Notes: generated by a model from the letters alone, not told the origin. 3,492 nucleotides of DNA from a virus (IMGVR_UViG_2737471838_000002); one strand, 5' to 3'. Positions 1-3,492 are shown, numbered from the stretch's first letter. Made by a program: numbers and translations.

Positions 1-112
1 AACTGAAGTTGCCCTGAAAATGAAATTTTTTTGCACAACCGCAGAACTTTTCCGCAGGGCATCAGTCTTAATTAGTGCCACTGCTTTTCTTTGATGTCCC
101 CATTTTGTGGAG

Positions 113-155
113 CCCATCAACCCCGCCATTTCGGTTCAAGGTTGATGGGTTTTTT
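113..155 (+). terminator. Putative rho-independent terminator: perfect 10-bp inverted repeat followed by a T6 run
   Basis: Seen in sequence: CCCATCAACC (113-122) pairs perfectly with GGTTGATGGG (140-149), 6 G:C pairs, with a 17-nt loop, followed directly by TTTTTT (150-155). The T-run is on the + strand only, so it would stop transcription entering from the left. An open frame (frame 2, positions 2-100) ends at TGA 98-100 just upstream, consistent with the 3' end of a + strand gene. The loop is longer than typical, which lowers confidence. Confidence 0.45.
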
Positions 156-235
156 GTTGCCTGAAATTTAAGATGTTTAAAATCATGATGTTAGAAGCAC
201 TGTTTTTTAACGATGGCGACAAAATGGCGGCAGCG

Positions 236-454
236 TCAAAGAGAGAGCGCCACCTGTCCTGATTTCATTGGATGCGGCTGAACTGGATTCGACTCTTTTG
301 GTGTTGCAATCGAACGAACAAAAGTTTCATGGGTAACAAAAGTATGGCTGCAGTTAATGTTCTGGCACTGGTTATAACGCTCTTTGGTCAATGAAGATAC
401 CTGAAAACTGCTGCGAGTATGGGCGGCACTTCCACACAGTGGGCAAATCATCAT
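236..454 (-). CDS. ogr: Ogr/Delta-family zinc-finger transcriptional activator (P2 late-gene activator homolog), 72 aa
   Basis: The translation MMICPLCGSAAHTRSSFQVSSLTKERYNQCQNINCSHTF... carries the C-x2-C-x22-C-x4-C arrangement and the KERYxQCQN(V/I)NC block that I recall from P2 Ogr and P4 Delta. Start moved from the track's GTG at 487 to ATG at 454: this gives a 72-aa product (the length I recall for P2 Ogr) and a GGGGAG Shine-Dalgarno at 465-470, 10 nt upstream. The family call is from memory, not a search. Confidence 0.88.
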   Translation of the reverse strand: MMICPLCGSAAHTRSSFQVSSLTKERYNQCQNINCSHTFVTHETFVRSIATPKESNPVQPHPMKSGQVALSL

Positions 455-650
455 TTTTCGAGTTCTCCCCATTTTTGCTAAATTCACAACAATGATACCG
501 TATTATTCCATTTTGCAAACTTAAAAGTTCTCCATTGCGAAGAATCATTCCATTTCGAAATCATCAATCCTCACTTCAAGCTCCAGACTGGTCGTAAAAC
601 CGTTATCCGGGCTGACGGTATGTGTCAGGGTGGTAATGGTCCATTCCGCA

Positions 651-1133
651 TCATCTAACGGTATCAACTGCACTCGCCATCGCAGGATTAGCCTGTAAAC
701 GGGCCTGCAATGAAACAGCGGCCAGCGCCATCAGCCGTGTTACAGAGTTAATGCTGCTGATAGCATCACGACGACCTGCACTGGTTTTTACATCGCCGGA
801 TACCGCACCTGCAGCAACACGCCCGATCTCTGCGGTTGCACTCATGACATAATGCGGCAGTTTCTCTTTTGCCACCTCATTAATCGGTACACATGGCAGG
901 CAGTGAATCTGTGCCAGAAAGCCATCTACCAGCGTTGAATCTTCAGTCAGATCGGTAAGCAACCAGATTTCTGGTGCGGTTAATAAATGAGGTTGAGCTG
1001 GGTTCAGCTTGTTCCGCAGAATCTGTACATTCATGCCTGCACGTTCTGCCAGTTGCACCAGGTTGTGGCGCAGTGCGAATGCACGACAGGCTTCGTCAAA
1101 ATGTGGATGTTTGGAAACTTGGTAATCAAACAT
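651..1133 (-). CDS. cII: Phage 186 CII-like (CP76 family) lysogeny-establishment transcriptional activator, 160 aa
   Basis: It lies immediately downstream of the apl-like gene, in the position of 186 cII. The N-terminus [19 protein letters not shown] and the segment [17 protein letters not shown] resemble the 186 CII / Pfam Phage_CP76 helix-turn-helix region as I recall it. Start moved from the track's TTG at 1139 to ATG at 1133, which has a GAGG Shine-Dalgarno at 1142-1145, 8 nt upstream. Size is close to 186 CII (about 169 aa). Confidence 0.75.
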
Positions 1134-1165
1134 GGTCAATGCCTCTGATGTATTTCAGAATCGAA

Positions 1166-1387
1166 CTAATTAAGGTTTAGATTGCATTCTGAAAGCGCAT
1201 CAACGGTCATTGCTGCTATGTTGATCATCACTTTTTCGCGTTTTTTATCTTTGCGCAGTCGGTGACGGATAAGGCGTCCATCAGCCAACATGTCATTGAT
1301 GGTATCGATGGATAGCCCTGTCAGCTCGCTATAGCGTTCAATAGTCACATGAGGGGTGGTAAGAGTGATTGAAATGTTAGGTCTCAT
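1166..1387 (-). CDS. Apl/Cox-like small DNA-binding protein (excisionase and switch regulator candidate), 73 aa
   Basis: A 73-aa ORF with an ATG start at 1387, transcribed divergently from the repressor gene and directly upstream of the cII-like gene, which is the position of 186 apl and P2 cox. The segment [23 protein letters not shown] looks like an excisionase-type helix-turn-helix. The assignment rests on position, size and this motif only; sequence similarity to Apl/Cox was not verified. The GAGG upstream is 11 nt from the ATG, which is suboptimal. Confidence 0.55.
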
Positions 1388-1459
1388 GATGCAACATTCC
1401 TCGTTTAATGATGATTAATCAGGACGAATACGGATCGTTTGTATTTTGTGAACACCATA

Positions 1460-1488
1460 AACATACGATCGCACAGTGAAATCGTCAA
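1460..1488 (-). promoter_or_regulatory. Candidate sigma70 promoter for the leftward apl-cII(-ogr) transcript (pR-equivalent)
   Basis: On the - strand: -35 TTGACG (+ coordinates 1488-1483), a 17-nt spacer, and -10 TATGTT (1465-1460). The predicted start near 1453 gives a ~65-nt leader to the apl-like ATG at 1387. Its location near the repressor start codon matches the face-to-face promoter layout described for the 186 and P2 switches. Motif-based only. Confidence 0.35.
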
Positions 1489-1512
1489 GATAAAAGTTCA
1501 CTTGGAGTGACC

Positions 1513-2082
1513 ATGAATTTGGAGAAAGGCGGACGAGGCGCTATAGAGCGCATGGTAGAAGCTTATGGATTCAAGACTCGACAGGCGTTGTGCGATCATT
1601 TAGGAATCTCTAAAAGTACACTCGCCACACGCTACATGCGTGACTCATTCCCAGCAGAATGGGTAATCCAGTGCGCCCTTGAAACAGGCACCTCGCTTAA
1701 TTGGCTCACAACCGGGCATGGTTCAAAGCAAACTTCAGGTAATACAAATACTATGGAAGTTGCTAAATATGTATTATCTGATGGGGCCTTGTGTGAAGAC
1801 GGTTTTTATATTTTCGATAGAGAATTTCTACCGTCGGCATTCAAGAATCTTTTTGTAATCACAGATAATAATTCTGAATTTATTTGTGATAAGGAATTTG
1901 ATGATATACGTGATGGTAAATGGGTAATAAGTATTGATGGCGAAATAACGATCCGTGACATTACTCGTTTACCCGGTGGAAGAATCTTCGTCGAGGGTGG
2001 AAACAGAGCCTTCGAGTGCAAGATAGAAGATGTTGAAATAATTGGGAAAATTATAAGTTTAACAATTAAGTACGTTAGGTAA
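1513..2082 (+). CDS. cI: Phage 186 CI-like immunity repressor (Phage_CI_repr N-terminal HTH domain plus C-terminal domain), 189 aa
   Basis: The N-terminal ~70 aa (AIERMVEAYGFKTRQALCDHLGISKSTLATRYMRDSFPAEWVIQCALETGTSLNWLTTGHG) match the 186 CI-type helix-turn-helix domain pattern I recall (AYGF ... LxxRYxR ... CALETG ... WLxTG). Length is close to 186 CI (about 192 aa). It is divergent from the apl-like gene and upstream of int, as in 186. Start moved from the track's GTG at 1507 to ATG at 1513, with GGAG at 1504-1507, 5 nt upstream. Confidence 0.8.
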   Translation: MNLEKGGRGAIERMVEAYGFKTRQALCDHLGISKSTLATRYMRDSFPAEWVIQCALETGTSLNWLTTGHGSKQTSGNTNTMEVAKYVLSDGALCEDGFYIFDREFLPSAFKNLFVITDNNSEFICDKEFDDIRDGKWVISIDGEITIRDITRLPGGRIFVEGGNRAFECKIEDVEIIGKIISLTIKYVR

Positions 2083-2097
2083 TACCGGGAGGAAACT

Positions 2098-2289
2098 ATG
2101 CTTGGTAAGGTATTTTTTGTGGTTTTATCATGCTCTTTGTTATTAAACCCACTAACTACCTATGCTAAAAATTATCCTTGTTCTGGGAAAAAGGGAGGTG
2201 TCTCTCACTGTACCTCCGATGGAAAGTTCGTTTGCAATGATGGAACTATTAGTAAATCAAAAAAAATCTGTACTAAAAACTCGCGATAA
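2098..2289 (+). CDS. Small hypothetical secreted protein: predicted Sec signal peptide plus ~40-aa lysine-rich mature peptide with 4 Cys
   Basis: There is a strong Shine-Dalgarno GGGAGG at 2087-2092, 5 nt before the ATG at 2098, and only 15 nt separate it from the repressor stop, so it is probably co-transcribed. The N-terminus [23 protein letters not shown] has the n-, h- and c-regions of a signal peptide, with a likely cleavage after TYA. The mature part [40 protein letters not shown] is cationic with four Cys. The coding region is AT-rich. No confident family is recognised. Confidence 0.5.
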
Positions 2290-2422
2290 ATTTTGCTTTT
2301 ATATCTGCGCCTAATATAACAATGAGCCGCAGGCTAACCGCAAAAGTCACATACTCACATAGCAAAAAATAGCTAACTTCATTATGGCTTCAGTGAGATG
2401 TATGGTCGCAGGATTTCATACA

Positions 2423-2451
2423 TTGACACTGGTTATACATACAGTAAAAAT
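2423..2451 (+). promoter_or_regulatory. Candidate sigma70 promoter directly upstream of int
   Basis: A perfect -35 TTGACA sits at 2423-2428. After a 16-17 nt spacer comes an A-rich -10-like hexamer, TAAAAA (2445-2450) or AAAAAT (2446-2451). The int Shine-Dalgarno GGAGGG follows at 2463-2468 and the ATG at 2476. The -10 match is weak and the call is motif-based only. Confidence 0.3.
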
Positions 2452-2475
2452 GCTCTCTACTGGAGGGCATTTTTT

Positions 2476-3492
2476 ATGGCAGTACGAAAACTCACCACAG
2501 GAAAATGGCTTTGCGAATGTTACCCCGCCGGACGTAGTGGACGTCGTGTGCGTAAACAATTCGCCACCAAAGGCGAAGCTCTGGCTTTTGAGCGTCACAC
2601 GATGGAAGAAACCGAAGCAAAGCCCTGGCTGGGCGAATCAGTGGATCGTCGGACATTGAAAGACGTGATTGAGCTATGGTTCAAACTACATGGTAAATCT
2701 CTGACAGCTGGACAGCATGTCTATGACAAACTGCTGTTGATGGTTGACGCTCTGGGCAATCCCCTTGCAACTGATCTAACCTCTAAAATGTTTGCCCACT
2801 ATCGAGATAAACGCCTGACAGGTGAGATCTACTTCAGCGAGAAATGGAAGAAAGGAGCAAGCCCGGTCACCATTAACCTGGAGCAAAGCTATCTAAGTAG
2901 TGTTTTTAGCGAACTATCCCGCCTGGGCGAATGGTCGTATCCGAACCCACTGGAGAACATGCGAAAATTCACCATCGCAGAAAAAGAGATGGCATGGCTT
3001 ACCCATGAGCAGATTGTTGAACTGCTGGCTGATTGCAAACGTCAGGACCCAATTCTGGCACTGGTAGTCAAGATATGCCTAAGCACAGGCGCACGCTGGC
3101 GAGAAGCAATAAATCTTACCCGCTCGCAAGTGACCAAATACCGAATTACCTTTGTAAGAACGAAGGGGAAGAAAAACAGAAGCATCCCTATCAGTAAAGA
3201 GCTTTACGAAGAGATCATGGCGCTTGATGGGTTCAATTTCTTTACAGACTGCTATTTTCAATTTTTATCCGTGATGGAAAAAACGTCTATCGTGCTCCCT
3301 CGCGGTCAACTGACACACGTTCTGCGCCATACGTTTGCGGCGCACTTCATGATGTCGGGTGGAAATATCCTTGCTTTGCAAAAAATCTTCGGACATCACG
3401 ATATAAAAATGACTATGCGCTATGCCCATTTAGCACCCGATCATCTTGAGACGGCTCTGAGATTCAACCCCCTCGCAACGCTAGAAGTGTGA
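2476..3492 (+). CDS. int: P2/186-type tyrosine recombinase (phage integrase), 338 aa, complete
   Basis: The N-terminus MAVRKLTTGKWLCECYPAGRSGRRVRKQFATKGEALAFE parallels the P2 Int N-terminus as I recall it (MAIKKLDDGRYEV...GRNGKRIRRKF...EAVAFE). The C-terminal catalytic region has LSTGARWREA, HVLRHTFAAHFMMSGGNILALQKIFGH and MTMRYAHLAPDHL, which supply the Arg, His-x-x-Arg and Tyr residues of the tyrosine-recombinase active site. Start set at ATG 2476 (GGAGGG Shine-Dalgarno 7 nt upstream) rather than the track's ATG at 2398, because the 26-aa extension has no counterpart in P2 Int. The stop TGA is at 3490-3492. Confidence 0.93.
   Translation: MAVRKLTTGKWLCECYPAGRSGRRVRKQFATKGEALAFERHTMEETEAKPWLGESVDRRTLKDVIELWFKLHGKSLTAGQHVYDKLLLMVDALGNPLATDLTSKMFAHYRDKRLTGEIYFSEKWKKGASPVTINLEQSYLSSVFSELSRLGEWSYPNPLENMRKFTIAEKEMAWLTHEQIVELLADCKRQDPILALVVKICLSTGARWREAINLTRSQVTKYRITFVRTKGKKNRSIPISKELYEEIMALDGFNFFTDCYFQFLSVMEKTSIVLPRGQLTHVLRHTFAAHFMMSGGNILALQKIFGHHDIKMTMRYAHLAPDHLETALRFNPLATLEV

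Follow-up and report, generated by a model that had tools for sequence, protein, structure and literature searches.

A cryptic P2-like prophage relic in rybB of Escherichia coli ZYB62, most probably left by one internal deletion

The 3,492-nucleotide stretch IMGVR_UViG_2737471838_000002 (the window, meaning the whole stretch analysed) matches positions 3171832-3175323 of NZ_CP074366.1, the closed complete chromosome of Escherichia coli ZYB62, with 100% identity. It almost certainly makes up nearly all of a relic, about 3.95 kb long, of a P2-like prophage (Peduoviridae) whose lysogeny switch is of the 186 type. Genes were called from profile matches to Pfam and PHROGs, from the PGAP annotation and, for the small RNA (sRNA), from Rfam, and every open reading frame (ORF) of at least 30 amino acids in the window was accounted for. 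The features are listed below, with coordinates counted from the first base of the window and with a slash marking the bond at a junction or breakpoint.

80-158, plus strand: rybB, host sRNA gene, complete (Rfam RF00110, 105 bits against a gathering score of 40, model positions 1-79 of 79)
144-157, no strand: attachment-site (att) core ATGGGTTTTTTGTT of attL, the left element boundary, from the att alignment
214-235, plus strand: putative arm-type sites for Int, TGGCGACAAAATGGCGGCAGCG, with two TGGCGNCA units spaced 11 bp apart
236-454, minus strand: ogr, intact, encoding a 72-residue Ogr/Delta zinc-finger late activator (PF04606, E = 5e-22)
455-544, minus strand: native D-ogr intergenic region, collinear with full-length phages
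545-657, minus strand: D', pseudogene fragment comprising the last 37 codons and the stop of tail gene D (phrog_52, phrog_12925)
657/658, no strand: deletion junction CATCATCTA/ACGGTATC, from a three-way comparison with parental sequences
651-1133, minus strand: cII, C-terminally shortened (PF06892, E = 3e-42)
796-810, no strand: intact copy of the recurrent breakpoint GGATA/CCGCACC (bond 802/803) that is cut in other remnants
1107-1133, no strand: inverted repeat ATGTTTG-N13-CAAACAT spanning the cII start codon, read from the sequence
1166-1387, minus strand: gene for an Apl/Cox-like excisionase-repressor of 73 residues (phrog_575, E = 6e-31)
1388-1512, no strand: switch region with a palindrome of 18-nucleotide arms and a candidate pR
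1513-2082, plus strand: cI, intact, 186-type immunity repressor (PF07022, E = 3e-33; PF16452, E = 9e-27)
2098-2289, plus strand: ORF of 63 residues with a signal-like N-terminus (phrog_6000)
2476-3492, plus strand: int, tyrosine integrase of 338 residues (PF24624 and PF00589)

Position 1 of the window is the base directly after the ybjL stop codon, and the element ends about 600 bp to the right of the window, just before rcdA, the site lying between ybjL/rybB and rcdA. An earlier reading of the window (the original prediction) had considered that replication or structural phage genes might continue to the left of position 1, as in an ordinary full-length prophage; the host genes ybjL and rybB stand there instead, directly beside the element, and no phage genes were found. 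The same reading had proposed that a short direct repeat would be found at both ends, and the 14-bp core ATGGGTTTTTTGTT was located in attL and again outside the window in attR, at about +4081-4094 (L001 16081-16094). The core is common to K-12 attB, the window attL, the ZYB62 attR and the attP of strain CFSAN061772 (the attR of ETEC1706 was also aligned), and in the same alignment the arms are exchanged as expected, BOB' and POP' giving BOP' and POB'. Phage homology begins at window position 145. The T-run of the rybB terminator forms the core, and the gene itself is left intact; in the K-12 annotation rybB lies between rcdA and ybjL, with attB inside it.

Of 5,426 complete E. coli genomes, 1,106 match a probe across the rybB-attL-ogr joint over its full length. 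rybB, a sigma-E sRNA gene, is a very common, major integration site of P2-like phages: its 3' end is occupied by a P2-like element in about 20% of complete E. coli genomes. The P2 relic of K-12 likewise lies at the 3' end of an sRNA gene, cyaR. The 22-nucleotide motif TGGCGACAAAATGGCGGCAGCG is repeated beside the int end of attP and is similar to YAYCGCCAYTY, the consensus given for the 186 arm sites in NC_001317; it is predicted to be an arm-type Int site. In CFSAN061772 (L006 5967-11959) and in FDAARGOS_1248 the phage stands within the chromosome in the order int-attP-ogr, with a truncated tape-measure gene, and this order points to tandem or rearranged P2-like prophages.

As the original prediction had described, ogr is transcribed leftward and int rightward, about 2 kb apart (2,021 bp from start to start), with cI, apl and cII between them. 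No complete replication, lysis or structural gene was found between ogr and int among all window ORFs searched against Pfam and PHROGs. The prediction that such genes were absent altogether stood except for the D remnant (545-657), which had been overlooked together with the 63-residue ORF, rybB with its att core and the exact position of the junction. Set against the gene complement of an intact prophage (A, lysis, head and tail genes and cos), the structural content of the window is 113 nucleotides of D. The order D-ogr-attP-int-repressor is found in the annotated genomes of P2 and 186 and in CFSAN061772, in agreement with the earlier statement that ogr (B in 186) and int flank attP, and integration therefore puts ogr and int at opposite ends of the prophage. 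A position of ogr downstream of cII as the normal arrangement in 186-like phages, which would make the window layout ordinary, was not observed: 186 B follows D, beside attP.

Comparison with CFSAN061772, which has a complete D and a complete cII, resolved the window into two collinear blocks, ogr-D (145-661) and cII-apl-cI-int (658-3482). These meet at a single junction, 657/658 (CATCATCTA/ACGGTATC), where L006 9458 (in D) is joined to L006 6001 (in cII) with a microhomology of 0-1 nucleotide. D' is 97-98% identical to complete D genes up to 657-661, and the cut points lie 113 nucleotides before the end of D and 30 nucleotides before the end of cII. A junction had been expected within 455-650; it was found, but just outside that interval, 455-544 being the native D-ogr intergenic region. 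In E. coli B (REL606) the block matching window 658-3492 (99.3% identity, same CI protein) continues leftward into fil, Dam, replication endonuclease, retron, terminase, portal, head, lysis and tail genes.

With the gene identities, the junction and its uniqueness (below), the att pattern and the host context established, one internal deletion, reaching from close to the end of cII to close to the end of D, accounts for the entire arrangement, and we hold this with high confidence. A full-length prophage would first have occupied the 3' end of rybB in the order attL-ogr-D-U-T, head genes, cos, A, fil-cII-apl-cI-orf-int-attR. A single illegitimate recombination would then have joined D, near its end, to cII, near its end, removing about 30 kb with every structural, lysis and replication gene. 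Left over would be both att sites, int, cI with its candidate operator region, apl, cII minus its last ten residues, and ogr with its own candidate promoter. The earlier suggestion of an internal deletion that kept both att-proximal ends is thus borne out by a truncated D abutting a truncated cII at one junction, and by the hybrid att sites.

No observation speaks against this account, and two points leave it less specific. The parental bases at the junction were taken from relatives that are 97-99% identical and not from this strain's own full-length parent, and the data fit a deletion in the integrated prophage as well as one in an excised or replicating circle that was then re-integrated.

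The 657/658 joint was sought with a 241-nucleotide probe across the junction and was found in one of the 5,426 complete E. coli genomes, ZYB62 itself, while the two probe halves occur at separate places in about 1,300 of these genomes. The original prediction had raised the question whether related genomes carry the same compact element at the same site; other remnants at rybB do exist, but with different junctions, which shows repeated independent decay. A junction present in one genome only might also be expected if a prophage had been collapsed during assembly of the ZYB62 sequence, an explanation to which we give practically no weight: the chromosome is closed and complete, the sequences joined at 657/658 share no repeat able to cause a collapse, and analogous small remnants lie at the same locus in several independently assembled genomes and in metagenome contigs.

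The uniqueness of the joint also bears on the other possibility raised originally, that of a genuine minimal satellite, selected to keep nothing but its lysogeny switch, its integrase and an activator acting in trans on a helper's late genes, in the manner of P4 and its Delta. In favour of it, the gene content is coherent (int, cI, apl, most of cII, ogr and both att sites), remnants of similar content are present in at least eight genome records, and one junction type (that of A134 and ET896) occurs in backgrounds about 5% diverged. A maintained element is nevertheless very improbable, since the junction is a singleton that cuts two genes and leaves a dead fragment of D, and the remnants keep differing amounts of D, U and T, as expected from decay rather than design. 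No cos was found in the window (the P2 cos 19-mer had no match at three or fewer mismatches), nor any primase/replicase, capsid-size or anti-repressor (derepression) gene by Pfam and PHROGs. The alpha, sid, psu, delta and epsilon families likewise had no match among the window ORFs of at least 30 residues, and Ogr is a plain protein of 72 residues, not a Delta-type double domain. The satellite or phage-inducible chromosomal island reading was rejected on the singleton junction and the lack of cos and of replication or hijacking genes. The element, specific to this strain, is a product of decay and not a minimal element that is being propagated; taken by itself, the locus is an ordinary, textbook cryptic-prophage relic.

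The remaining small relics were collected with a chimeric probe, which detects only small relics of this immunity type. Such relics were found in eight records, representing seven strains, with at least five junction types among them. The junctions are given below in L006 (CFSAN061772) coordinates, left partner before the slash and right partner after it, together with those of two relics that belong to another phage type and lie elsewhere.

ZYB62: 9458/6001
E3: 9458/6146
A134, EC06 and ET896: 10102/6146
ETEC1706: 10750/6146
D97-1: 11096/6481
CAVP773 (different phage type, other site): 10324/6146
PK5 (different phage type, other site): 11349/6146

The recurrent cII-side end was followed further by searching the 46-mer to the right of window 803 in metagenome contigs and in IMG/VR. 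It was present in 81 metagenome contigs, four of them with a foreign left flank, and in 137 IMG/VR contigs, five with a foreign left flank. All foreign-flank contigs break at the same bond, TA/CCGCACC (TA/CCGCACCTGCAG), corresponding to window 802/803, where the site is intact. At least 13 independent large deletions share this breakpoint in cII, with left partners in D, U, T, terminase, portal and gene A (occurrences at L003 4949, L005 4301, L007 4720, L008 4343 and L009 2157, and in L012, L018, L055, L095, L099, L101, L176 and L354). In 215 contigs no other break was seen within the 178 bp of cII that adjoin the hot spot on the left. The reciprocal product was found in none of about 120 contigs, which may be because it would delete cI and would probably be lethal. 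The microhomology at the hot spot is 2-7 nucleotides and is always right-anchored at TA; in L354 a nearby 9-nucleotide match to the hot spot was bypassed and the joint was made three bases later, at GTA/CCGCACC. The A134 and ET896 relics have the same joint, with about 5% difference on both sides of it and host flanks that are 99.8% identical. ET896 (L004 3645) carries, besides the A134-type junction, a second deletion of 291 bp inside D' with a 3-nucleotide microhomology (TTC), which points to stepwise erosion of a relic.

The D-side end of the window, CATCATCTA/ (649-657), is also reused. It occurs in ZYB62, in E3 (L009 2157) and in L354 (3277) with three different right partners, that in E3 being the cII hot spot and that in L354 a head-gene region. 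Between ZYB62 and each of E3 and L354 the ogr-D' segment differs by about 2.5%, so the D-side events look independent.

These nucleotide-exact recurrent breakpoints are the only surprising element among the relics. Their simplest reading suggests a chemically fixed 5' end of the plus strand at C803 on the cII side and a preferred 3' end in D; the minus strand would serve as the splint on which incoming ends are joined to C803. Tentatively, and at less than even chances, we propose that P2-like prophages of E. coli carry site-specific strand discontinuities (at TA/CCGCACC in cII and CATCATCTA/ in D), arising from a nick, a priming site or a replication-arrest site through phage or host activity. 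These would repeatedly seed large one-sided deletions and so provide a directed path from full prophages to harmless mini-elements with integrase, immunity and ogr, the window being one product. From the chromosome orientation the replication forks run from int to ogr, which makes the plus strand the lagging one, and a preferred priming or fork-arrest site is, speculatively, a candidate cause of the hot spot. The breaks in the small rybB relics, few as these are, are not random; if specific DNA processing lies behind the shared breakpoints, this would offer a mechanistic handle on prophage domestication.

Several other causes were considered and rejected. A hairpin at the cII hot spot was discarded because DNA folds of both strands were no stabler than those of shuffled sequence (z-scores -0.96 to +0.34). 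A pseudo-origin for the rolling-circle initiator A has only CGG-NN-TCC in common with the nick regions of the P2, 186 and B-phage origins, and the polarity and exact bond do not fit. Recombination by Int at secondary sites is at odds with a hot spot common to phages that have different integrases and att sites, and adjacent deletion by insertion sequences (IS) with the lack of an IS at any junction. In-frame fusion or selection at the protein level was dismissed since E3 appears to fuse cII and D in frame and A134 does not (by-eye reading of the junctions and PGAP pseudogene coordinates). Common descent of the hot-spot junctions was set aside because the partners on the left come from different genes (D, U, T, terminase, portal and A) and the backgrounds are 3-15% diverged. 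Nothing relevant to a described deletion hot spot in P2 or 186 was found in the searchable literature.

The same ends would also allow a different route to the window, in which a mini-circle cII'-apl-cI-int-attP-ogr-D' was formed from an excised or replicating genome by joining site-specific strand ends and was then integrated into rybB by Int or replaced a prophage. The retained segment is indeed one contiguous arc of the circular phage map, from cII through attP to D. The D-side end recurs in three diverged backgrounds with three partners and the cII 802/803 end in at least 13 junctions, which together suggest chemically defined ends. Against such a circle, the enzyme that would make the ends is hypothetical, and the cII-side end of the window itself (658) is not recurrent (0 of 215 contigs). 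Cells do not normally survive lytic replication, and packaging offers a mini-circle that lacks cos no way into a new host. The integrated product would look identical to that of a deletion in place. We regard this route as unlikely and retain the single internal deletion as the explanation of the window.

After such a deletion, a number of functions are predicted from the retained genes, of which those for CI, Int, Apl and Ogr encode full-length proteins. CI would still be made from the lysogenic promoter and would keep apl-cII off, conferring immunity to phages of the same immunity type. The element is predicted to be unable to replicate, lyse the host or be packaged; it may be excisable by Int together with Apl, and Ogr could act in trans on the late promoters of an incoming P2-like phage or P4-like satellite. 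No second copy of any part of the window was found elsewhere in ZYB62 at megablast sensitivity, which indicates that a closely related co-resident helper is absent. One illegitimate deletion can disarm a P2-like prophage and yet spare its immunity repressor and integrase as well as its late activator and the two att sites, and ZYB62 may remain immune to phages of the same immunity type while still carrying a potentially trans-acting Ogr.

Ogr matches PF04606 with 78 bits (cut-off 26.3) and has the zinc-finger motif Cys-X2-Cys...Cys-X4-Cys, its residues C4, C7, C30 and C35 being invariant relative to P2 Ogr and 186 B. The single-domain protein (WP_000972391.1) is identical in other remnants at the rybB site. 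A consensus scan of 455-544 yielded a candidate ogr promoter at 519-492 (TTTGCA, 16-nucleotide spacer, TATCAT). No copy of the switch-region operator half-sites was found in 455-544 upstream of ogr, and the presence of CI operator copies there, as at 186 pB, was rejected. The D remnant forms part of an ORF of 42 residues (545-673), annotated by PGAP as 'late control protein D, incomplete', and its matches to phrog_52 and phrog_12925 cover the C-terminal end of the profile.

The gene set of the switch is of the 186 type: a CI with PF07022 and PF16452, a divergent Apl/Cox gene (phrog_575) and, downstream of apl, a CII (PF06892). The CI protein (WP_001047321.1) is the same as in the E. coli B and C prophages. 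The palindrome with 18-nucleotide arms (1433-1470) is a candidate CI operator. A candidate pR (TTGACG, 17-nucleotide spacer, TATGTT) was located on the minus strand at 1488-1460, promoter-like consensus matches being no more numerous than in shuffled sequence. The palindrome half-sites (ACGGATCGTT and GATCGCACA; 1430-1475) recur in inverted orientation inside cI at 1589-1597 and 1947-1956, about 120 and 500 bp away, an arrangement reminiscent of the flanking CI site FL of 186.

Of CII, 159 native residues remain, after which a single foreign Arg and a stop codon take the place of the lost last ten codons; the protein is 99% identical to REL606 CII. The inverted repeat over the cII start stands at the same position as the annotated CII site of 186 (the first 28 nucleotides of cII from the start codon) and, by this analogy, is expected to be the CII site of a pE-type establishment promoter; the 186 CII half-site likewise reads ATGTTTG.

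The 63-residue ORF between cI and int has four Cys residues and a signal-peptide-like N-terminus, and some records call it 'YdcA family'; it is probably cargo that the lysogen expresses as part of the lysogenic cI-int operon. int diverges from other alleles at 3482/3483, and its final codons, from 3483 onward, come from an insertion of about 470 bp (3483-3492 and L001 15493-15960) that replaces the last 12 int codons and is common to E. coli B. The 110-residue ORF on this insertion had no match in Pfam or PHROGs. In other strains the position 3' to int holds an ORF of 270 nucleotides or nothing, and this varying content points to a small variable cargo slot between int and attR.

Among known systems, P4 is a small integrative element that encodes an integrase, an immunity function and an activator of the Ogr family usable on helper late promoters. 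The window element shares these general attributes but differs from P4 in lacking cos, the alpha primase-helicase, sid, psu and epsilon, in having a single-domain Ogr and in being a unique deletion product. P2 has the same D-ogr-attP-int order (Ogr 51% identical), whereas the switch of the window is of the 186 type and not of the P2 C/cox type. The PR-X relic of K-12 (cyaR-ogrK-yegZ) is also att-proximal, with an intact ogr and a 3' fragment of D beside the 3' end of an sRNA gene; it has P2-type sequence and has lost int and the immunity region, whereas the window element keeps the whole lysogeny module. Phage 186 (Eganvirus) has the same order, D-B(ogr)-attP-int-cI with apl-cII divergent, and the same CI and CII families; its CII site lies over the cII start, where the window has the inverted repeat, and its Int arm sites have a TGGCG core, as do the putative ones of the window. 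The identities to 186 are 32% for CI, 55% for Int (RYAH tyrosine region included), 69% for CII and 54% for B/Ogr, Apl being only weakly similar and barely alignable. The attB differs (rybB in the window, the tRNA gene ileY in 186), and 186 has CI operator copies at pB that are lacking upstream of the window ogr. Also among the closest known systems is the defective P2-like prophage of E. coli B (REL606/BL21), which occupies the same rybB-rcdA attachment site, shares int, the small ORF, cI, apl and cII in the 99.3% identical block over 658-3492 and carries the same insertion with its 110-residue ORF at the 3' end of int. That prophage keeps its fil, Dam, replication endonuclease, retron, head, lysis and tail genes, whereas the window element most probably lost them all in one deletion.

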